Made by a program: the position numbers and the translations under genes
Notes under the pieces: model-generated
Seen by the model: only the letters and a program-made list of their open reading frames with translations
The model's database searches: none
Told to the model about the DNA's origin: nothing
From: a virus
Taxonomy: Duplodnaviria > Heunggongvirae > Uroviricota > Caudoviricetes
Strand: one strand, 5' to 3'
IMG/VR virus record: IMGVR_UViG_638275541_000001
Length of the DNA: 64,000 nucleotides
Shown here: positions 5,679-57,071 of the stretch, in pieces
How the letters are laid out: each line of letters begins with the position of its first letter
Position numbering within the stretch: the stretch's first letter is position 1

Positions 5679-5841
5679 GAGCGATAAGTACACTCAAGAA
5701 GAGTCACGTTATATCATCAAAGGCAACACAGGCAGTGATGTAGCAGCAGCCCTTGAGTTCTATCGTGACGGCTTTTACCAGTGTACAATCAAAGCTAATA
5801 ACCTTATTGACATGATTTTATTAGGGAATAAGCAGCAATGA
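5572..5841 (+). CDS. lipoprotein, o-spanin-like
   Basis: GAGG RBS; signal peptide with lipobox (ITMSGC); overlaps preceding TM-protein gene in another frame. Confidence 0.4.
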   Translation: MKKLSQSFIMFVLLITMSGCSTNKVNSTFKNSQVSESDKYTQEESRYIIKGNTGSDVAAALEFYRDGFYQCTIKANNLIDMILLGNKQQ

Positions 5842-6107
5842 CAGAGAATCAAGAGACTTTCTATGTAGAAGGTTACTTACTGTTACCACGACCAAAAGAA
5901 ACTTATATGCGAATTGATTTCTCACCAACCATCATGGATAATGTGCTGTGCCATATCTTTATGCAAGGTGTCACAGCACAACTTAAGCATGTTGGCAAAG
6001 AGTGCAAAATAAAGGTTGACACTCATCCAGAAATCAAAGAGAATCACTACACATGGTTCTTACCAGACTCTAAAGAAATCTTAGCAGTTCTTAAAACGAG
6101 GAAATGA
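5838..6107 (+). CDS. hypothetical protein
   Basis: ORF in tightly packed early array (4 nt overlap). Confidence 0.4.
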   Translation: MTENQETFYVEGYLLLPRPKETYMRIDFSPTIMDNVLCHIFMQGVTAQLKHVGKECKIKVDTHPEIKENHYTWFLPDSKEILAVLKTRK

Positions 6108-8643: not shown

Positions 8644-8672
8644 GGGGCTTAAAAGTCTGTAAAGTAAGCCCC
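8644..8672 (+). promoter_or_regulatory. intergenic leader hairpin, type A (GGGGCTTA...TAAGCCCC + CAGATAAAGAG)
   Basis: GC-clamped hairpin followed by conserved CAGATAAAGAG and RBS leader; copies also at 9246 and 10313. Confidence 0.5.
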
Positions 8673-12056: not shown

Positions 12057-12305
12057 ATGGCTACTATCCGCGCAACTGTTAACGAATTTGGCTTCTACTC
12101 TCTGGATGTTAAATTTGACATTGCAGGCACTGATAACGCCTTTGAAATGGTGAAAGGCCTTATCAGTCAGACCATCAAAGATTATAATCCTTCGGATGAG
12201 TTCTGGGAGGAAACAAAACAAGAAGTTCTCAAGGATGGCTATACTTATCACTATTGGGGAGAAAAAATCGTCTCCCTGTACTACAATAAACAAGATTATA
12301 ACTAA
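12057..12305 (+). CDS. small early protein (unknown)
   Basis: start at ATG after conserved leader; track ORF began at 11952. Confidence 0.5.
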   Translation: MATIRATVNEFGFYSLDVKFDIAGTDNAFEMVKGLISQTIKDYNPSDEFWEETKQEVLKDGYTYHYWGEKIVSLYYNKQDYN

Positions 12306-12343
12306 TCGACGCAGCGGGGCTAAATAGCCCCAGATACCCTAAC

Positions 12344-12368
12344 AGCCCCTATTTAAAGGGGCTTTTTT
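12344..12368 (+). terminator. rho-independent terminator closing the early array
   Basis: AGCCCCT-ATTTAA-AGGGGCT hairpin plus TTTTTT. Confidence 0.7.
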
Positions 12369-12639
12369 ACGTCTATCGAATCCTTATACAAACCCTTTCC
12401 ACCTCCTTTCTAGAATCTTATCAGACCTTAAAAACAATAACTCTATAGTCTACTCTATAGCCTTTTATCAAATCAACTTAAATATAAGCCCATAACCCGA
12501 AAGGGAAGGGCAACCACTAAAACGCTCTATAACGCTCTATAACAGCCTTATCAACCTAACTTAAGCAATCATATTAACCCACCCTAAAAAGCCCTTTATA
12601 AAGCTTCTTAGAGCCTTAAAAGAATCTTATAAGGGTGTA

Positions 12640-13830
12640 AGCTTTATTATCTCGTTAGCTATCTTGTGAACTACTAAAAAGGGCTTGGTAGCTCCTTTAA
12701 AGTATGTTATAGGGGCTATGAAGTTACTTCAAAGTAACGTAAAAGGGGCTTAAAAGTTACGTAAATGCTAGCCCCCTTAACATTTTCTTAACAATTTCTT
12801 AACAAATCCTACATAGTTATGCTTGTTAGAGACTTGTTAAATCTCTGTTAAGACCACGTAAAAGCCTTGTAAGAGTCTTTGGCATAGCCTTAAAAGCTCC
12901 TGTAAAGCCCTATAAAGAGCTATCCATACAGTTGAGGGGTAAATACTAGGGAGAGACTTAAAAGAGCTTATAAAGAGCTATAGAGAGCTTTTAAGAGGTA
13001 TGTTTAAGGAATCACTAAGAAAGGAAAGGGAACGATAAGAAAGAAGTAGTGACCATGTTAATAGCTTGTTAAAAAGGTTAAACACTTGTTAGGAACTTGT
13101 TAATTATCTTAACAAAATAACTCTTTAAAATTAACTTGTTAGCTCTTGTTAGTCATCTGTTAAGCATCTGTAAAGCCTATTCAGCACTTGTTAGAAAACT
13201 GTTACATCCTTGTTAGTTCTGTTAAGAAACTGTTAAGACCTTTGAAGAGTTGTTAAGAAGATGTGAGAACTGTTAAGAGATTGTTAAGGATATTTTAAAA
13301 TTTTGCAAAGGGGGTGTTAAGGGGCTGTTAAGGGCTACCAAGCAGATATACATCCTAATCAGATATTTTTCAGTTCCTTCAAAGACCCTAAAAAATGACT
13401 TGATAGCTCTATTTTATAAAAATTTTAAAATTCTGAATAATTACCTATACAGTCTTTTAAAAATACAGGTAGAAACAGGCTTATAAGATACCTTGTTAGT
13501 ACCGTGTTAGACCTTGTGAGATAAGGTCTGTAAAGATATTCCTGTTAAGTTTGTTAAAACAGTCTATATAGAGGCTTAGTAATACCTAGTGAACACCTAT
13601 AGAGGGTATCATAGCTGACATAGAGATTAAGAGGTGTATAGGAGCTTCTAAGAGGGTATAGAGAGATGGTTAAGGTGATTATATAGGCTGTTAAGAAGGC
13701 TTGTTAGAGGGCTAGTTAGAAGGGTTATACAGAGGGGCTATTAAGACCACTAGATAGTTACTAAGATACTATATAGTACTATATAACTATATAGAGAGTA
13801 AGATTAAGAAGGTTGTTAAGAAGGATAGAT
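12640..13830. repeat. ORF-free region with dispersed and tandem YTGTTARG repeats in both orientations
   Basis: ~30 copies of CTTGTTAG/CTGTTAAG and reverse complement TTCTTAACA; no ORF >60 aa between convergent transcription units. Confidence 0.8.
13045..13335 (+). repeat. core tandem array of TGTTAAG units with ~10-11 bp period
   Basis: e.g. 13207-13292: TGTTA motif recurs every 10-11 nt for 8 consecutive units. Confidence 0.75.
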
Positions 13831-13927
13831 ATTTTATTCACATATGATGGTGACCCAGAGGTTGGGACAACCGATAAAATTTTATAAAAATTAAAAAGCC
13901 CCCAATTAAGGAGGCTCTTAAGATATT

Positions 13928-14533
13928 TTAAATCAAACTTTCTAAAACTGTTTTTAGTGATGACTTAGTTGTCTGATAAAAATGAGTGAATCCGTTGTTG
14001 TTATCGAATATCTGCATCATAACAGCATCTCCCTTGATTGGATACACTCGGATATCATAGTGAAACCCGTTAAAGACAGCAGAACCATTACAGAACACAC
14101 TAAAATCATCCACTGAGATGTACTCTTCATGACCTGTGATTTTTATACAAACACCTTTACTCGGTCTCTTAGGGTTGATATCTTCCATCACAGACATACT
14201 CTGTCCACCAAGAGATACCATAGTGACCACTTTACGGTTCTTCTGTTTAAAGTACATCTTAACTTTCTGTAAAGTGTCTTCATAGAACGGATAAGACTTC
14301 TCTACAAAGATTCCTTCAAGTGGCTCTTTACCATTCTTAACTTCTCTGATATGTCGTACTGAGAAGACAAGCTGCTCTAGTATGTCAAGGCTTTCTTTGG
14401 ATAATGCTTCTCGAATATCACTCCAGTCAAGGACTAGGTAGTTACCTTCAACTTCTTTTAAGTTATCTTTTTCCATAGCTGTCACACCATTATCGTAAAA
14501 CTTGGTAGTCTGGTACTGCAAACTTGTTGTCAT
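13928..14533 (-). CDS. hypothetical protein
   Basis: 201 aa ORF, last gene of minus-strand block. Confidence 0.45.
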   Translation of the reverse strand: MTTSLQYQTTKFYDNGVTAMEKDNLKEVEGNYLVLDWSDIREALSKESLDILEQLVFSVRHIREVKNGKEPLEGIFVEKSYPFYEDTLQKVKMYFKQKNRKVVTMVSLGGQSMSVMEDINPKRPSKGVCIKITGHEEYISVDDFSVFCNGSAVFNGFHYDIRVYPIKGDAVMMQIFDNNNGFTHFYQTTKSSLKTVLESLI

Positions 14534-26047: not shown

Positions 26048-26395
26048 ATGAAAACTTGTCTTAAGTGTAAACTTAGCAAGGATGAAAATGATTTCTACAT
26101 GAAAGATGGTAAGAGAACTCATTCATACTGTAAAAAGTGTGTTAATGAGCAAACCATAGAAAGACAAAGAGCACTTAAACTTTCAGCTATTGAATACAAA
26201 GGTGGAGTTTGTCATGATTGTGGTAAAAGGTATCATCCAGCAGTGTATGACTTCCATCATTTGAATCCTTCAGAGAAAGATTTTAGCATTGGTCATAGAA
26301 AGAGCCTTAAATTCTCTCAAGAGTTAAAGGACGAACTTGACAAATGTGTTTTGCTATGTTCAAATTGCCATAGGGTAAGACATGCAAAGTATTAG
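26048..26395 (+). CDS. HNH endonuclease (paralog 2)
   Basis: DFHHLNP and CSNCHRVRH motifs; start set to ATG downstream of tRNA. Confidence 0.7.
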   Translation: MKTCLKCKLSKDENDFYMKDGKRTHSYCKKCVNEQTIERQRALKLSAIEYKGGVCHDCGKRYHPAVYDFHHLNPSEKDFSIGHRKSLKFSQELKDELDKCVLLCSNCHRVRHAKY

Positions 26396-26532
26396 TTAGC
26401 AGATTACTTAGACGACCTAAGCGGGTCTTCCTGTAGGGAGGTGGTCTGTATCTCATGTTTTCCAGAACATGTAAATAATCTGAGAAGGGGCTTTACAGTG
26501 TTGAGATAATACGGTAAGCTTCGAATTATAGT

Positions 26533-26615
26533 ATGGGACGATGTTAAGACTCTAAGGCATGAGCAACGGCTTCCAACACCGTTTCAAAGGGGTTCAACTC
26601 CTCCGTCCCATGCCA
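26533..26615 (+). tRNA. tRNA-like gene, non-canonical interior (anticodon unresolved)
   Basis: perfect 7 bp acceptor ATGGGAC/GTCCCAT, T-loop TTCAACT, CCA; interior does not fold into a standard cloverleaf by eye. Confidence 0.45.
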
Positions 26616-26628
26616 AAGTCTTATTATG

Positions 26629-26716
26629 GGTAGGTAGCGGCTAATGGTAGCCAAACTGTCTTGAAAACAGTTGCCACTGTAGAGATACGGTGAGGGTTCG
26701 ACTCCTTTACTTACCG
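26629..26716 (+). tRNA. tRNA-Ser (anticodon TGA), long variable arm
   Basis: anticodon stem ACTGT/ACAGT loop CTTGAAA; ~20 nt variable arm; T-loop TTCGACT; CCA not fully encoded. Confidence 0.75.
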
Positions 26717-26974
26717 CCTAATAAGATTTTAAAGCCAAGCTTCATTCGGATGTTGCTTTGGTATCCCTCGTGTATTGTCGTACACACTGATAAAACACCT
26801 AGTAGGTGTCACGGAGAAGAGATAATATCAAGCTCTCCAAAGGTTCTAGTCACCGGATTAAACAAGACTATGCAAAGACCTTTTTAGGTCTTTTTAGAGG
26901 GCTTCTAAGGTTATTACCGCTTGTTGTGGAACCTTGTTGCTTAGGTTCTTAGAAGTTCTCTAAAAAGATTTAAT

Positions 26975-27052
26975 GGGAGATTGATGGTAATTGGTAAACC
27001 TATCTCGCTTAGAACGAGATGTTTGAGGGTTCGAATCCCTTGTCTCCTACCA
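26975..27052 (+). tRNA. tRNA with TAG anticodon (Leu codon CUA), short variable arm
   Basis: anticodon stem TCTCG/CGAGA loop CTTAGAA; T-arm GAGGG-TTCGAAT-CCCTT; CCA. Confidence 0.6.
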
Positions 27053-27059
27053 AATTAAT

Positions 27060-27135
27060 GCAGGTGTAGCAAAATGGTTATGCGGCTGACTCTTAATCAG
27101 TAAGACGATGGGTTCAATTCCCTCCACCTGTACCA
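27060..27135 (+). tRNA. tRNA-Lys (anticodon CTT)
   Basis: acceptor GCAGGTG/CACCTGT, anticodon loop CTCTTAA, CCA. Confidence 0.7.
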
Positions 27136-27141
27136 GACATT

Positions 27142-27217
27142 TGGGTCATAGTTTATATGGTTAAAATTCGAGTTTTGCAAACTTGGGAACTGAGTTCAAT
27201 TCTCAGTGACTCCACCA
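27142..27217 (+). tRNA. tRNA-Ala (anticodon TGC)
   Basis: T-arm CTGAG-TTCAATT-CTCAG, anticodon stem CGAGT/ACTTG loop TTTGCAA, CCA. Confidence 0.65.
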
Positions 27218-27223
27218 ATTAGT

Positions 27224-27298
27224 GCATCCATAGTTTAAACGGGAAAATTACAGTCTTCCAAACTGAGGTTGAGGGTTCGATTCCCTCTGGATGCTCCA
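27224..27298 (+). tRNA. tRNA-Gly (anticodon TCC)
   Basis: acceptor GCATCCA/TGGATGC, anticodon loop CTTCCAA, T-loop TTCGATT, CCA. Confidence 0.7.
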
Positions 27299-27312
27299 AA
27301 TTAAGGTGTGAT

Positions 27313-27726
27313 ATGAAAATATGCAGTACTTGCAGAATACCAAAAGATGAAAGCTTATTCCATAAGAATAAGAACAAGAAAGATGGTCTTCAAAGTCAAT
27401 GCAAAGACTGTGCAAGACTTCGTGATGCAAAGAGTTATCAAGCAAATGATAAAAGGAAAGAGGCTATTAAAAGCACTCGTAACTTCAAGAGAGAGTATAA
27501 TAAAGCTCTAGCTAGAAGGTACAAAGCTTTATGCAAATGCCATATATGTGGTGAGAAAGAACCAGTTGCACTGGATTTACACCATACAGACCCTTCCCAG
27601 AAAGATTTGAATCCTGCATCACTTTATTCATACTCCACAAAAAGATTAAAAGATGAAATCAGAAAGTGTATTGTCTTGTGCGCTAACTGCCACAGAAAAG
27701 TACATGCTGGCATCATAAAAGTTTAA
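27313..27726 (+). CDS. HNH endonuclease (paralog 3)
   Basis: DLHHTDP and CANCHRKVH motifs plus CxxC pairs. Confidence 0.7.
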   Translation: MKICSTCRIPKDESLFHKNKNKKDGLQSQCKDCARLRDAKSYQANDKRKEAIKSTRNFKREYNKALARRYKALCKCHICGEKEPVALDLHHTDPSQKDLNPASLYSYSTKRLKDEIRKCIVLCANCHRKVHAGIIKV

Positions 27727-27727
27727 T

Positions 27728-27804
27728 GCTGCTTTCGTATAATTGGCTATTACACATCCCTTGTAAGGATGGAAATGCAGGTTCAAGTCCTGTGAGCAGC
27801 ACCA
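27728..27804 (+). tRNA. tRNA-Thr (anticodon TGT)
   Basis: anticodon stem CATCC/GGATG loop CTTGTAA; T-arm GCAGG-TTCAAGT-CCTGT; CCA. Confidence 0.8.
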
Positions 27805-27899
27805 ATTCAGAGGTCAAGTGAAAGACCGCTGGTGTCAACTGAAGACCGTAACAAATTCCACGGAGTTGAGTTAGCGGCACAACTTCAGACCTCTTTCAC
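27805..27899 (+). ncRNA. structured inter-tRNA element with nested inverted repeats
   Basis: GTGAAAGA...TCTTTCAC outer pairing, CCGCT/AGCGG inner pairing, internal GAAGACCGT motif shared with Y-like elements. Confidence 0.3.
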
Positions 27900-27974
27900 A
27901 CTCGCTTAGTTTATATGGTAAAACATCACCCTTACAAGATGAAGAAAAAGGTTCAAGTCCTTTAGTGAGTACCA
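27900..27974 (+). tRNA. tRNA-Val (anticodon TAC)
   Basis: acceptor ACTCGCT/AGTGAGT, anticodon loop CTTACAA, T-arm AAAGG-TTCAAGT-CCTTT, CCA. Confidence 0.75.
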
Positions 27975-27975
27975 T

Positions 27976-28053
27976 GTTCCAGTATCCCAATTGGCAGAGG
28001 ATGCAAGCTCAAACCTTGTATTAGTGACGGTTCGAATCCGTCTTGGAACACCA
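27976..28053 (+). tRNA. tRNA with CAA anticodon (Leu codon UUG), short variable arm
   Basis: anticodon stem GCAAG/CTTGT loop CTCAAAC; T-arm GACGG-TTCGAAT-CCGTC; CCA; body paralogous to 28906 tRNA. Confidence 0.6.
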
Positions 28054-28166
28054 ATTTGAGGAGAGCACTATGAGTAATAACTCCATCGCAAAAAAGTTTA
28101 GAGCGTCATACCTAAACAGACGTAAAAACAAAGTTTGTGAAAAACTGTATGGTGTTCTCGTAGGTA

Positions 28167-28242
28167 AGCAGGATTAGTTCAAATGGATAGAGCAACAGTC
28201 TACGAAGCTGTTAATAGGGGTTCGAATCCCTTATCCTGCGCC
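28167..28242 (+). tRNA. tRNA-Arg (anticodon ACG)
   Basis: D-stem GTTC/GAGC, anticodon stem ACAGT/GCTGT loop CTACGAA, CCA. Confidence 0.8.
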
Positions 28243-28261
28243 AATTTAAAGAGGCTATTTA

Positions 28262-28819
28262 ATGAGATATTTGAAGTATGCTTCATGGATTTTCTTAGCT
28301 TTACTAGACCCAATTGCAGCAATCCTAGCAGTTATCTTAGCACCTTTCGTAGTTCCATTCTACAGTGAGAAGAAAGGACATCTACCTTTTGGATTCAGAT
28401 GGATGGAGACCTATGACAACCCAATTGATGGTGATGAAGGTCACGTTAAAAGATGGGCTAAGATTAGAAAGATTGGTAAGCTGGGTGTCTACATGCAGAG
28501 AGTCGGATGGCTCTGGAGAAACAAAGCTTATAACTTATCTTACCATGTATTAGGAAGAGATGTAAAAGATGTTACTAAGTGGAAAGGTAATATCAACGTA
28601 AGTTCTGACCCTGAAGATAATCAGACAGGTTATCTCCTAATGTGGAACAACAATGCTTGGGGATTATTCGCTTTTATTCCGTCAATTAAAATCTTTGGTA
28701 AACAGTTTTACTGGAGAATTTATGTTGGATGGAAACTAAAAAGTGTTGTCCCAAAAGAAAGAGCATTCTCAAGGGAAAGAGTTATGTTGGCATTCTTTAT
28801 TCATCCACTGAGAAAGTAA
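28262..28819 (+). CDS. membrane protein embedded in tRNA cluster
   Basis: 185 aa ORF; hydrophobic N-terminus IFLALLDPIAAILAVILAPFVVPF. Confidence 0.5.
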   Translation: MRYLKYASWIFLALLDPIAAILAVILAPFVVPFYSEKKGHLPFGFRWMETYDNPIDGDEGHVKRWAKIRKIGKLGVYMQRVGWLWRNKAYNLSYHVLGRDVKDVTKWKGNINVSSDPEDNQTGYLLMWNNNAWGLFAFIPSIKIFGKQFYWRIYVGWKLKSVVPKERAFSRERVMLAFFIHPLRK

Positions 28820-28827
28820 AGATTTAA

Positions 28828-28903
28828 AGGGGATTAGTTTACAAGGTTAAAACCTCGGTCTTTGAAATCGAAGAAGTTGGTTCAATTCCAACATCCCCCG
28901 CCA
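28828..28903 (+). tRNA. tRNA-Gln (anticodon TTG)
   Basis: D-stem GTTT/AAAC, anticodon stem TCGGT/ATCGA loop CTTTGAA, T-arm GTTGG-TTCAATT-CCAAC, CCA. Confidence 0.7.
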
Positions 28904-28905
28904 AT

Positions 28906-28984
28906 GCTCCATTACTCCAATTGGCAGAGAGGCCAGACTTAAAATCTGTGTTATGTATCGGTTCGAATCCGATATGGAGTACCA
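28906..28984 (+). tRNA. tRNA with TAA anticodon (Leu codon UUA), short variable arm
   Basis: anticodon loop CTTAAAA; T-arm ATCGG-TTCGAAT-CCGAT; CCA. Confidence 0.6.
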
Positions 28985-28989
28985 ATTTT

Positions 28990-29065
28990 AGCGGTATAGC
29001 ATAACTGGCAATGCAGCAGTCTCTGAAGCTGTCCTATTAAGGTTCAAATCCTTATGCCGCTGCCA
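28990..29065 (+). tRNA. tRNA-Gln (anticodon CTG)
   Basis: D-stem GCAT/ATGC, anticodon stem GCAGT/GCTGT loop CTCTGAA, T-arm TAAGG-TTCAAAT-CCTTA, CCA. Confidence 0.8.
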
Positions 29066-29096
29066 CTTCTAAGGGTTCTTACGAGAGTCCTTAAAT

Positions 29097-29172
29097 GTGG
29101 CCTTATCATAAATGGTAATGACCCATGCTGTGAACATGGTCTATACGGGTTCAAATCCCGTAGGTCACCCCA
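29097..29172 (+). tRNA. tRNA-His (anticodon GTG)
   Basis: D-stem TCAT/ATGA, anticodon stem CCATG/CATGG loop CTGTGAA, T-arm ACGGG-TTCAAAT-CCCGT, CCA. Confidence 0.8.
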
Positions 29173-29177
29173 ATTTA

Positions 29178-29254
29178 TAGTCCAAGTAGCTTATATGGTT
29201 AAAGCGCGTGTCTGAAAAACATGAGAAGAGGGTTCAAATCCCACTGGACTACCA
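29178..29254 (+). tRNA. tRNA-Phe (anticodon GAA)
   Basis: anticodon stem CGTGT/ACATG loop CTGAAAA, T-loop TTCAAAT; acceptor register ambiguous by 1-2 nt. Confidence 0.7.
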
Positions 29255-29270
29255 ATTTCAAAGGTGCTTA

Positions 29271-30005
29271 ATGAAAGAGATGACAGAACAAGGTAAGGAG
29301 ATTTTTAATCTCTTAAAAACCGGTAAAGGGTTTTCTAACCCACTTATTACTGGTGCAGCAGTTCTCGGTGGAACCGTAGCTGCCTCTACATCACTTGTAA
29401 GCTCTATTAGCTCTGTAACAGACCCTACAATGAAGGAGAAGCTTGTTGCTGCTGGACTCACAACAGCCCTCCTAAACAGCTTTACAACAAGCCTGACAAG
29501 CACTACAGCAACTACTAAGACCCTAACAGACTATGGTCAAAAGTCTATTGATGAGTTTTCATCACGTATGCAGGTAGCAAAGGGGTACTCCAATGTTATG
29601 GGTGCAGCAGGAGAACAAGTTGGTTGTACACCATTCAGTGGTATTATGGGTGTTGCTACAGAGTACGGTCAGCAAGCTATTGACACTATTAACAGCACAC
29701 TAGACAGTGTTAACGGTGTGTTAAGTGACTTACAAGACGCTATTGATAAGGGTCTTGCTACTGTTTCTGATTTAGCTAACCAAGCTGTCAGTAAGATTAA
29801 TGAAGGTATTTCAAAGATTACAGCTTATGCAGATGAAGTTGTGCAGATGATTGAAGAAGAAGCTGCCCTTATTGCAGAGTACCTTAAAACGAATATCAAT
29901 GGGTTCTTAGCAGGTATCTTACCAGACTGGTTTGATGATGCTTATAAAACTGGTGTAATTGACACTATTGCAACACCAGAAATGAAGAGCGCATTACAGA
30001 AATAA
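29271..30005 (+). CDS. hypothetical Ser/Thr-rich protein
   Basis: start trimmed to ATG after tRNA-Phe; track ORF overlapped the tRNA. Confidence 0.45.
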   Translation: MKEMTEQGKEIFNLLKTGKGFSNPLITGAAVLGGTVAASTSLVSSISSVTDPTMKEKLVAAGLTTALLNSFTTSLTSTTATTKTLTDYGQKSIDEFSSRMQVAKGYSNVMGAAGEQVGCTPFSGIMGVATEYGQQAIDTINSTLDSVNGVLSDLQDAIDKGLATVSDLANQAVSKINEGISKITAYADEVVQMIEEEAALIAEYLKTNINGFLAGILPDWFDDAYKTGVIDTIATPEMKSALQK

Positions 30006-30007
30006 AT

Positions 30008-30100
30008 GGAAGATTAACCCTAAAAGGTAAGGGAGCAGTTTGCTAAACTGCCAGTAGCTGAGAAATCGGTGTACCAGTTCAAGTCTGGTATCTTCCTCCA
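30008..30100 (+). tRNA. tRNA-Ser (anticodon GCT), long variable arm
   Basis: anticodon stem GCAGT/ACTGC loop TTGCTAA; 21 nt variable arm; T-arm ACCAG-TTCAAGT-CTGGT; CCA. Confidence 0.75.
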
Positions 30101-30104
30101 ATCT

Positions 30105-30180
30105 GAATCCGTGACAGAAATGGATATGTGCCTGTCTGCAAAACAGGTTTATAAGGGTTCAAGTCCCTTCGGATTCTCCA
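30105..30180 (+). tRNA. tRNA-Cys (anticodon GCA)
   Basis: acceptor GAATCCG/CGGATTC, anticodon stem CCTGT/ACAGG loop CTGCAAA, T-arm AAGGG-TTCAAGT-CCCTT, CCA. Confidence 0.8.
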
Positions 30181-30402: not shown

Positions 30403-30603
30403 ATGAGCGAGAACGTTTATAAAGAACTTTATGAAGCTAACAAGAAGTTAGAGTTTATGCAGAATACTATCATGGCAATTGCAGATAGACTGTCTGTAGC
30501 AACAGGTATTGATATTAAAGAAGCATCTATGGATGCACTTCTTGATGCTGTTGATGCAAAGTTCGAAGTTAAGAAAGAAGAGACTGCTACAGACTCTGAA
30601 TAA
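30403..30603 (+). CDS. small protein upstream of terminase (function unknown)
   Basis: 66 aa from ATG with GGAG RBS; track ORF started upstream. Confidence 0.4.
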   Translation: MSENVYKELYEANKKLEFMQNTIMAIADRLSVATGIDIKEASMDALLDAVDAKFEVKKEETATDSE

Positions 30604-30624
30604 TTCTATTTGCGGAGGCGCTTA

Positions 30625-32226
30625 ATGGACTTAAATGCTGTTAAGCAGAAGCGAGTGGAAGATGTTAGGAAAGTCCTAGCTGGAGAGTTGGGGCTTTCTG
30701 ATGAAGTAAAAGAAATTATTAAATCATTCGGTAAAGACCCCTCTAAATTCCTTCCAACTCAAATTCTGACTTTATTAAGATACACACCAGACCAAGTTCG
30801 CCTTATCTTTAAATTGATGACTGATAAGAACTATGTAGCCCCTCAGCCGGGTTCTCAAGAGGTCTTTTTAAACACTAATGCTGACTTGGTACTCTATGGT
30901 GGTGCTGCTGGTGCTGGTAAGACTGCTGCATTGTTAATGGACTCCTTAAGATTTATTGAAGACCCTAACTATAATGCTGTGTATTTCCGTCGAAATACAA
31001 CACAGCTACAAGGTGGTTTATGGCCTGCTGCAAAGAAACTATTTGGTAAGTTTGGTGGGATTCCTCACGAGCAGAAAATGACTATCACATTCCCTTCTGG
31101 GGCAACTATCAAGTTTACCTATCTAGAACTTGAAAAGCACGCTGAAGGTCATCAGGGTATTGAATACTCAGCTATTTACTTTGACGAAGGTACACACTTC
31201 TCTGCTTCACAGATTTCATACCTACAAACCCGTCTACGTTCTGGTGCTGAAGGGGATTCATACATGAAGATTTCCATGAACCCAGACAGAGACCATTTTA
31301 TTTATGATTGGGTAGAGCCATTCTTAGATGAAGAAGGTTATCCAGACCCTGAAAAGTGTGGTCGTATTCGTTGGTATGTAATGAATGATGGTGTGATGGT
31401 TTCTGATTGGGAGAGAGACAAGATTCTTGAAATGTTCCCTCTTGAGATTCCTCAAACATACACCTTCATCTCTGGTACGATTGATGATAACCCAATTCTT
31501 GACTTCTTAGAACCTAAGTACCGTGGTAAGTTGGAAAACAACACCCCTGTAAACGTTGCAAGACTTCGTTTCGGTAACTGGAAGGCTCGTGCAGAAGGTT
31601 CAAACTATTGGCAAAGACAATGGTGTGAAATTGTTGATTCACTCCCAGAGGATGTATTTGATGTTAGAGCATGGGACTTAGCAGCAACTTTACCATCTGA
31701 AATTAACCCTAATCCAGACTGGACAGCAGGTGTTAAGATGGGTAAATCTAAAAAAGACGGTTGCTATTATATCATTGATGTAGTAAGATTTAGAGATAGA
31801 CCCTCTGGAGTCGAAACACAAATTAATTTGACTGCTGAAAGTGACGGTAAGCGAACTGGTATTTTTATCCCTCAAGACCCAGGCGCTGCTGGTAAATCCT
31901 ACGCAACATCCCTCATCAGGAAACTTGCCGAGAAAGGCTATCGTGCAAGAGCTAAACCAACAAATAAAGATAAAGTTACCCGATTCGCGGGGTTTTCTGC
32001 TGCTTCTGAAGCTGGACTTGTAAAAGTTTTGAGAGGTAGTTGGAACGAAGCTTATTTCCAAGAGCTTGAAGGCTTTTGTGGTGATGGCAAAACTAAAGAT
32101 GACCAAGTGGATGCTACCAGTGATGCTTTCAACAGTCTTAACGAAGTTAAATTATTCAAGCCACCATCAATGGGTGCTCACACAGACTTAGTGAGAGGAA
32201 ACCCATATGAGGGGCTTAGACGTTGA
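30625..32226 (+). CDS. terL: terminase large subunit
   Basis: Walker A LYGGAAGAGKT; acidic ATPase and C-terminal nuclease-type regions; start at first ATG with GGAGG RBS (track began at TTG 30610). Confidence 0.8.
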   Translation: MDLNAVKQKRVEDVRKVLAGELGLSDEVKEIIKSFGKDPSKFLPTQILTLLRYTPDQVRLIFKLMTDKNYVAPQPGSQEVFLNTNADLVLYGGAAGAGKTAALLMDSLRFIEDPNYNAVYFRRNTTQLQGGLWPAAKKLFGKFGGIPHEQKMTITFPSGATIKFTYLELEKHAEGHQGIEYSAIYFDEGTHFSASQISYLQTRLRSGAEGDSYMKISMNPDRDHFIYDWVEPFLDEEGYPDPEKCGRIRWYVMNDGVMVSDWERDKILEMFPLEIPQTYTFISGTIDDNPILDFLEPKYRGKLENNTPVNVARLRFGNWKARAEGSNYWQRQWCEIVDSLPEDVFDVRAWDLAATLPSEINPNPDWTAGVKMGKSKKDGCYYIIDVVRFRDRPSGVETQINLTAESDGKRTGIFIPQDPGAAGKSYATSLIRKLAEKGYRARAKPTNKDKVTRFAGFSAASEAGLVKVLRGSWNEAYFQELEGFCGDGKTKDDQVDATSDAFNSLNEVKLFKPPSMGAHTDLVRGNPYEGLRR

Positions 32227-56741: not shown

Positions 56742-57071
56742 TTAATCTGCCAACCTTAAATTGAAATTAACACCAAATTTTTCACACACTCCCAACATAT
56801 ACTCAAGGGAAACATTCCCAGTGAGGTGGATTATGTTGGATACACGAGCCTGAGAGATACCGCAAATTTTAGCAACTTGTTCTTGAGAAAGACCTCTGGA
56901 TTTAATCTCTCTCTTAAAACGATGTGCAACGAAGTCTCTCATTTCGTCTACATCCATTGGACAAATATAACTCTCCATTTCAGCCTCTCTATCAGCCTCC
57001 CAATCATCTTGTGGGGCATAAGGGTCAAAAACATCATTCATCTTTCTTCTTCCGTTTGCGTGAAGTGTCAA
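56742..57071 (-). CDS. HTH DNA-binding protein
   Basis: LSQEQVAKICGISQARVSNI helix-turn-helix. Confidence 0.45.
   Translation of the reverse strand: MTLHANGRRKMNDVFDPYAPQDDWEADREAEMESYICPMDVDEMRDFVAHRFKREIKSRGLSQEQVAKICGISQARVSNIIHLTGNVSLEYMLGVCEKFGVNFNLRLAD

Follow-up and report, generated by a model that had tools for sequence, protein, structure and literature searches.

Arrays of short motifs beside a cleavage site are known from the packaging regions of several phages. Lambda cosB comprises R sites plus IHF, with sites for IHF and gpNu1, P1 pac carries seven TGATCA/G hexamers flanking the cut, and pacL and pacR of SPP1 are terminase recognition arrays. In these systems the motif copies lying by the cleavage site serve to build a bent complex of protein and DNA that holds the nuclease in position, and to which a host architectural protein contributes in lambda and P1. 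Phage T7 reportedly has a terminal repeat with flanking arrays of short repeats. In Felix O1-like phages, the chromosome ends of UAB_Phi87 have been mapped by Bal31 digestion and run-off sequencing, and the sequence of its 608-bp direct terminal repeat (DTR) is printed in Fig S1 of the report (Bardina et al., 2016; PMC4837284). PhageTerm reports for relatives give terminal repeats of 581 bp (Pr103Blw) and 439 bp (SPARTY). That this genus has a terminal repeat, and roughly how long it is, has already been published, and several records are opened there. Here, we have analyzed a stretch of 64,000 nucleotides from a virus of the Caudoviricetes (IMG/VR record IMGVR_UViG_638275541_000001; hereafter the window), in which a gap between convergent genes carries many copies of TGTTAAG. 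Homology to the mapped relatives places a short DTR of 569 bp at 12771-13339 in this gap, and some 25 TGTTA(A/G) elements make up the repeat, placed head to tail in runs of two to five at 11-bp spacing.

By its matches, the window is assigned to Felixounavirus, the Felix O1-like myoviruses, whose hosts are Escherichia, Salmonella, Shigella and Citrobacter. The 1.6-kb gap region found matches in 255 phage records (80-95% identity), of which almost all are Felixounavirus, and 563 bases (12779-13341) were 100% identical to Salmonella phage FO1a. A 763-aa open reading frame (ORF) runs from base 1 of the window, the FO1a record opens with RIIA, and an opening convention near rIIA is stated in the Felix O1 paper; the start of the window upstream of rIIA appears to be this conventional opening point of Felix O1-like genomes. 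A preliminary description of the window had reported an ORF-free convergent gap at 12640-13830, filled with iterons. The gap is indeed free of genes, with no ORF of at least 40 aa between 12327 and 13928, and its true extent is wider (12306-13927). Convergent terminator-like hairpins, at 12344-12363 on the plus strand and at 13919-13894 on the minus strand, bound the gap on either side. It was 80-99% conserved across 23 Felixounavirus loci.

Several lines of evidence fix the repeat and its boundaries. First, the UAB_Phi87 DTR could be aligned end to end with 12779-13341 of the window. Second, the records of E9, ZX4221 and SPJ41 carry exact repeats at both ends (580, 591 and 613 bp, respectively), all of which start with GCCCCCTTAACAT and end with GTTAAGGGCTACC; these independent isolates thus end at the same nucleotide, and the two strings fix the repeat of the window at 12771-13339. 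Taken together, the UAB_Phi87 alignment and the boundaries of the three records identify what had been called the iteron core as the DTR. Third, a more distant relative, SPARTY (Kolesnikvirus), has its 439-bp repeat at both record ends with boundaries positionally homologous to those of the window, and at the homologous DTR boundary it reads CCACT, then the cut, then AAGCAGATATACA. Finally, in Erwinia phage vEam_PM_6 (PP079182, Kolesnikvirus), an Illumina adapter remnant is joined straight to the same left end. This remnant, TTCCGATCT, forms bases 1-9 of PP079182. The right-hand repeat copy of vEam_PM_6 is 27 nt short of the SPARTY boundary (412 versus 439 bp), and the deposited right end of this record is probably truncated. 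The deposited UAB_Phi87 record (JN225449; 87,603 bp) opens elsewhere than at these mapped termini. By the same homology, the cuts are placed between 12770 and 12771 and between 13339 and 13340, with one copy of the repeat per concatemer junction and two in virion DNA. The flank 12306-12770 then adjoins the right genome end and the flank 13340-13927 the left genome end, and both are unique non-coding DNA. One further observation comes from an IMG/VR contig (L016), whose end (5700-5903) holds scrambled, reiterated copies of the left terminus (…TTGTTAAGAATTTGTTAAGGGGAC…); these look like an assembly artefact at a genome end. The gap and its repeat are laid out as follows.

12306-13927, no strand: ORF-free gap between convergent genes, read here as a putative genome-terminus module of left flank, terminal repeat and right flank
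12771-13339, no strand: DTR, 569 bp, placed by homology to the mapped UAB_Phi87 repeat and by boundary strings in three records
12776-12804, minus strand: three TGTTAAG at 11-bp spacing, facing outward, the first starting 6 nt from the left end
12815-12852, plus strand: phased run of four elements, AGTTA followed by three TGTTA
13056-13332, plus strand: main array, 17 TGTTA cores in phased runs of 5, 4, 5, 4 and 2
13340-13355, plus strand: AAGCAGATATACATCC, directly outside the right cut and conserved across genera in the cross-genus alignment

Both boundaries of the DTR lie within the array, as a pac- or cos-like site adjacent to the cut would have it. After the left triple, the plus-strand runs follow one another with 4, 5, 4, 5, 4 and 2 elements, and the right end of Felixounavirus genomes follows the last TGTTAAG at a distance of 7 nt. 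On the left, the outward-facing elements stop 5 nt short of the cut. The abundance of the motif is not explained by base composition: the window has 41 copies of TGTTAAG where 17.2 ± 4.3 are expected, none of 100 shuffles reached 41, and 16 of the 41 copies fall within 12776-13820. Relative to the rest of the window, the gap is enriched 9-fold for TGTTA, 23-fold for TGTTAAG and 65-fold for CTTGTTA. About 30 copies of YTGTTARG had been claimed for 12640-13830. This number holds for the relaxed motif TGTTAR (30 copies; 26 on the plus and 4 on the minus strand), whereas the strict YTGTTARG occurs there 15 times; the whole gap contains 31 copies of TGTTAR (26 plus, 5 minus). The claim that units recur every 10-11 bp on one face of the helix was borne out. 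Neighboring cores on the same strand are 11 bp apart in 13 cases, and the number of 10-11 bp spacings (14) was reached in none of 5000 random placements. The 17 plus-strand cores at 13056-13330 (∼270 bp) share a period of 10.3 bp (R = 0.82), since steps of 9, 10 and 20 bp offset those of 11 bp, and the cores thus stay on one helix face. In the window, Michonne and SUSP1, a long-range phase of 10.3-10.4 bp was stronger than under a jitter null (p < 0.005), and the best periods in Sf19 and Ea21-4 were 10.2 and 11.4 bp, respectively (p about 0.015).

The elements are conserved as sites. We aligned 23 Felixounavirus loci, with cells matched to the window, and found that the TGTTA columns were 98% conserved within the genus, compared with 89% for the other DTR columns. 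Against Mooglevirus and Suspvirus the corresponding values were 94% and 73%, and within the main array the core columns were 94% conserved between genera versus 69% for the spacers. The array persists in four genera of the Ounavirinae: Felixounavirus, Mooglevirus, Suspvirus and Kolesnikvirus all keep it with its 11-bp spacing and strand layout, including the outward-facing triple, which in all of them starts 6 nt from the left end, and Kolesnikvirus does so though only 75 nt of its repeat can still be aligned. Conserved cores between drifting spacers are the signature of binding sites, which suggests that the TGTTA elements are contacted by a protein.

Candidates for the packaging proteins were looked for in the phage itself. 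Two genes are relevant.

30403-30603, plus strand: ORF of 66 aa directly upstream of the terminase gene, PHROG 4397, function unknown
30610-32226, plus strand: large terminase subunit TerL (Pfam Terminase_6N, 2e-43; Terminase_6C, 4e-33)

A clustering with the terminases of terminal-repeat phages was reported by Bardina et al. (PMC4837284). In Felix O1-like relatives TerL is annotated and a small terminase subunit (TerS) is not; PHROGs and Pfam detected none among the genes beside the gap and in the 66-aa ORF of the window. The 66-aa ORF gave no Pfam match and no match in a PDB sequence search, and in relatives every one of the records listed annotates it as hypothetical. Its homolog in Bas63 is gene 1, which lies inside a segment reported as uniformly essential; the main text of the PhageMaP paper is without intergenic scores for Bas63. 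We regard the 66-aa ORF as a candidate small packaging factor. The only recognizable sequence-specific DNA-binding protein noticed in the window is an HTH_3 (Cro/C1-type) protein of 109 aa (56742-57071, minus strand) in the nucleotide-metabolism and replication block. It was set aside as the binder of the elements, because proteins of this type usually bind inverted rather than head-to-tail repeats. Upstream of the terminase gene, 25 tRNA genes form one cluster (23699-30180, plus strand).

On these grounds we propose, with a probability of roughly 0.6, that the gap is a genome-terminus module in which the phased array serves as a nucleoprotein platform for generating and packaging the genome ends. 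In such a scheme, a protein would bind the elements head to tail and cooperatively, in the manner of winged-helix proteins of the OmpR/PhoB type, and the resulting protein array on one face of the DNA would fold or mark the concatemer junction. A terminase without a recognizable small subunit could in this way find and cut two boundaries: TerL would nick at both conserved boundaries, and copying of the repeat would then give both ends. The binder would be either phosphorylated host ArcA (ArcA-P) or a putative phage protein. Of the functions offered in the preliminary description, a terminase pac/cos binding array came closest, since the array core does hold both cut sites, although the genome terminus itself had gone unrecognized.

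Several observations weigh against this proposal. The published boundaries of UAB_Phi87 lie 8 nt inside (left) and 2 nt outside (right) of those derived from the records. The window carries a single, collapsed copy of the repeat, and the termini of this particular phage are placed by homology. The binder of the elements is a candidate only, and its binding is predicted from sequence. The elements also far exceed what a cut site needs and extend outside the repeat (13492-13727). In addition, the right cut site of Kolesnikvirus is about 20 nt from the nearest element; thus, the choice of the cut site may be set by the conserved boundary sequences and not by the elements.

Head-to-tail 7-bp repeats at 11-bp spacing are the geometry of winged-helix regulators of the OmpR/PhoB type, and core and spacing specifically match those of ArcA, the regulator of the oxygen response in the host. 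In Escherichia coli, ArcA-P sites consist of TGTTA direct repeats 11 bp apart from center to center; each site has two to five repeats, and additional ones stand 11 or 22 bp away (Park et al., 2013; Park and Kiley, 2014). The phage elements resemble them in the TGTTA core, the 11-bp head-to-tail repeats, the runs of two to five and the extra repeats at about 22 bp. For a quantitative comparison we used an 18-bp ArcA matrix built from 115 of the 128 boxes identified in Escherichia coli by chromatin immunoprecipitation sequencing (Park et al., Table S3); the 115 training boxes score 9.6-21.6 bits (mean 15.8). Eight of the 10 matches of at least 15 bits in the window fall within the DTR, and the density of such matches was 4.9 per kb in the gap versus 0.03 per kb outside, dinucleotide shuffles of the gap giving 0.10 on average. 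The phage boxes equal or exceed real sites in matrix score. Two boxes at the left terminus reached 22.8 and 22.6 bits, above all 115 chromosomal boxes, and the phased run at 12815-12852 contains boxes of 15.7 and 17.9 bits. Michonne, SUSP1, Sf19 and Ea21-4 have seven matches of at least 15 bits each, all of them in the gap, and the position homologous to the left-end triple scores 17-20.6 bits in Mooglevirus, Suspvirus and Kolesnikvirus. Thus, repeat geometry and matrix score are those of ArcA sites (eight boxes of at least 15 bits, maximum 22.8), whereas the flanking-base preferences are not: the phage cores are preceded by Y and followed by R and then G, compared with W before and then A/C and W after the cores of ArcA sites (chi-square p = 2e-4, 1e-4 and 5e-5 at the three positions). 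Chromosomal ArcA sites also comprise no more than five repeats and lie at promoters, whereas the phage has six successive runs in 569 bp, placed at a virus genome end.

Weighing likeness and difference, we consider host ArcA-P a possible but doubtful binder of the elements, and give at least equal odds to a phage protein that recognizes TGTTAAG. It is conceivable, though we hold it only tentatively, that the genome ends form a super-array for ArcA-P, each repeat carrying about 25 sites and each virion genome two repeats, and the three strongest sites starting 6 nt from the left end. If so, ArcA-P would coat the ends or the concatemer junction, and it could supply the specificity or the architecture that a terminase without small subunit lacks, or could protect incoming ends. 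DNA maturation could then be tied to the anaerobic state of a gut host while the regulator is soaked up, and a two-component response regulator would be used as a structural part of virus chromosome ends.

A different role for the same binder should also be weighed, namely that the array mainly serves to bind ArcA-P, as a decoy or sensor, and that packaging needs the boundary sequences only. In one variant ArcA-P would be titrated, with growing amounts of phage DNA, from genes of respiration and the tricarboxylic acid cycle; in another, replication and packaging would be made oxygen-responsive. The concentration of eight strong matches in 569 bp and a top score above the chromosomal maximum argue for such a role, as does the recurrence of the pattern in four genera whose hosts are all Enterobacterales. 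A negative search points the same way. When E. coli ArcA was compared by tblastn with 50,697 phage records, the 40 matches listed comprised host-contaminant contigs and unrelated phages, and match counts per organism were far below the approximately 250 Ounavirinae genomes in the collection; thus, no OmpR/PhoB homolog was detectable in Felix O1-like phages. In addition, plasmids are known to co-opt ArcA in an architectural or a regulatory role (the psi site of pSC101 and the regulation of R1 transfer). Set against this are the flanking bases, which differ from those of chromosomal ArcA repeats (p about 1e-4), and our literature searches, in which no paper linking ArcA to Felix O1-like phages was found; ArcA binding here is predicted from motif likeness. 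We therefore regard a decoy or sensor as unlikely to be the main role of the array.

The two flanks of the repeat contain further features, some of which bear on the remaining alternatives.

12344-12369, plus strand: terminator-like hairpin at the end of the plus-strand early gene array; AYO145A has an annotated rho-independent terminator at the homologous place
12441-12541, minus strand: four TATAGAG copies (CTCTATA on the plus strand), including the AACGCTCTAT tandem
12745-12776, plus strand: member of the GGGGCTTAAAAG family; it forms a weak hairpin, the 3' arm of which adjoins the left cut
13400-13465, no strand: 66-bp stretch of 17% G+C in the right flank, 60 nt beyond the array
13494-13519, 13543-13556 and 13702-13727 (within 13492-13727), plus strand: TGTTA runs outside the DTR, interleaved with TATAGAG
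13894-13919, minus strand: terminator-like hairpin at the end of the minus-strand gene block; annotated as a terminator in AYO145A

The right flank is strongly conserved: within the genus, 13351-13900 was 90-99% conserved per 50-bp bin, mostly above the DTR (85-97%), and the non-coding flank 13340-13927 was far better conserved than the upstream coding gene (33-63%). TATAGAG has nine of its 14 copies in the window within the gap, in a mirrored arrangement of four minus-strand copies in the left flank and five plus-strand copies in or right of the DTR (12979 inside it; 13567, 13598, 13657 and 13790 in the right flank). As had been described, AACGCTCTAT is present twice in tandem (at 12521-12540), and the hairpin family of the early array does extend into the gap, exact copies of GGGGCTTAAAAG being found at 8644, 10313 and 12745 and copies with one mismatch at 2309 and 9874. 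This family matches the core of intergenic repeats of 57 bp that Whichard et al. described for Felix O1. Its copy in the gap lies 15 nt before the left cut site, and the predicted fold at this boundary (12745-12776) was no better than that of shuffled sequences (z = 0.31). A scan of 12200-14000 against Rfam (E ≤ 1) gave two chance-level matches and no family. Nor is an array of promoters supported, or one of decoy −35 elements: TTAACA resembles TTGACA, yet sigma-70-like promoters were not enriched in the gap (eight sites versus 6.9 expected). The G/C skew flips from about −0.4 in the left flank to about +0.5 in the right flank.

An iteron-type replication origin, the first function that had been suggested for the array, would have the phased repeats bind an initiator and the stretch at 13400-13465 unwind, the position at the terminal repeat being secondary or dual-purpose. 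Many direct repeats on one helix face next to an AT-rich stretch of 66 bp, in a flank that is 90-99% conserved, are what such an origin would show, and phage T7 has secondary origins near its ends. The other components were not recognized. An initiator-like gene was not found, the genes beside the gap matching only PHROGs of unknown function and no Pfam family significantly, and the gap contains a single DnaA box with one mismatch and no IHF consensus. The units themselves are cores of 7-8 bp in 11-bp repeats, unlike the 17-22 bp of typical iterons. Moreover, array and mapped terminal repeat occupy exactly the same place, and an outward-facing run lies at the left end. An origin thus seems improbable as the primary function of the array, and the part of the suggestion that stands is the direct repeats beside an AT-rich stretch.

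A third possibility is that the array is functionless debris of tandem duplication, the repeat needing only identity at both ends for recombination, with its interior free to vary. Terminal repeats do form concatemers by homology and need no particular sequence for this. Under such a model, cores would not be expected to stay conserved while spacers drift, nor would core, spacing and strand layout persist in Kolesnikvirus, where the rest is unalignable; this site-specific conservation rules out functionless debris for practical purposes, and we give it very little weight. A ParR-type partition centromere, also put forward earlier, shares with the array only the phased 10-11 bp repeats and can be dismissed, because no par operon adjoins the gap, the genes on either side point toward it with their 3' ends and terminators, no gene resembling those for partition or lysogeny was seen in the annotated part of Bas63 or among the window genes scanned, and Felix O1-like phages are described as virulent.

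The genome-terminus module proposed here would have practical consequences. Felix O1 is a classic phage of diagnostics and biocontrol, and few coliphages or Salmonella phages are isolated as often as its relatives. What was an unannotated gap of 1.6 kb can now be described as an element with exact cut sites and about 30 places where a protein may make contact, so that the mechanism of end recognition in a much-used phage genus becomes directly testable, and annotators gain a rule for opening Ounavirinae genomes at their true ends. If ArcA binds, infection by this widely used therapeutic genus would vary with host oxygen state, a point of relevance to applications in the gut and in food; should a phage protein bind instead, the array can serve as bait to find it.

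Compared with the systems described to date, the locus is closest to the DTRs of Felix O1-like phages (UAB_Phi87, 608 bp; Pr103Blw, 581 bp; SPARTY, 439 bp), with which it shares homologous sequence, map position and boundary sequences. The reports on these repeats give length and sequence only, and in the literature searched we came across no account of phased TGTTA elements, of conservation at the level of sites, of the triple at the left terminus or of the likeness to a host regulator. T7 is similar in having a short exact terminal repeat made largely of reiterated short motifs, with more repeats outside it, and ends produced by terminase cutting at concatemer junctions. However, the T7 repeat is 160 bp long with an unrelated motif, whereas that of the window is 569 bp and belongs to a myovirus with a T4-like Terminase_6N/6C enzyme whose small subunit was not recognized. 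Lambda cosB, P1 pac and SPP1 resemble the locus in having several copies of a short motif flanking or adjoining the cleavage site. Their arrays comprise three to seven sites, whereas the phage has about 25-30, which fill the whole repeat and extend beyond it and to which terminase binding is putative.

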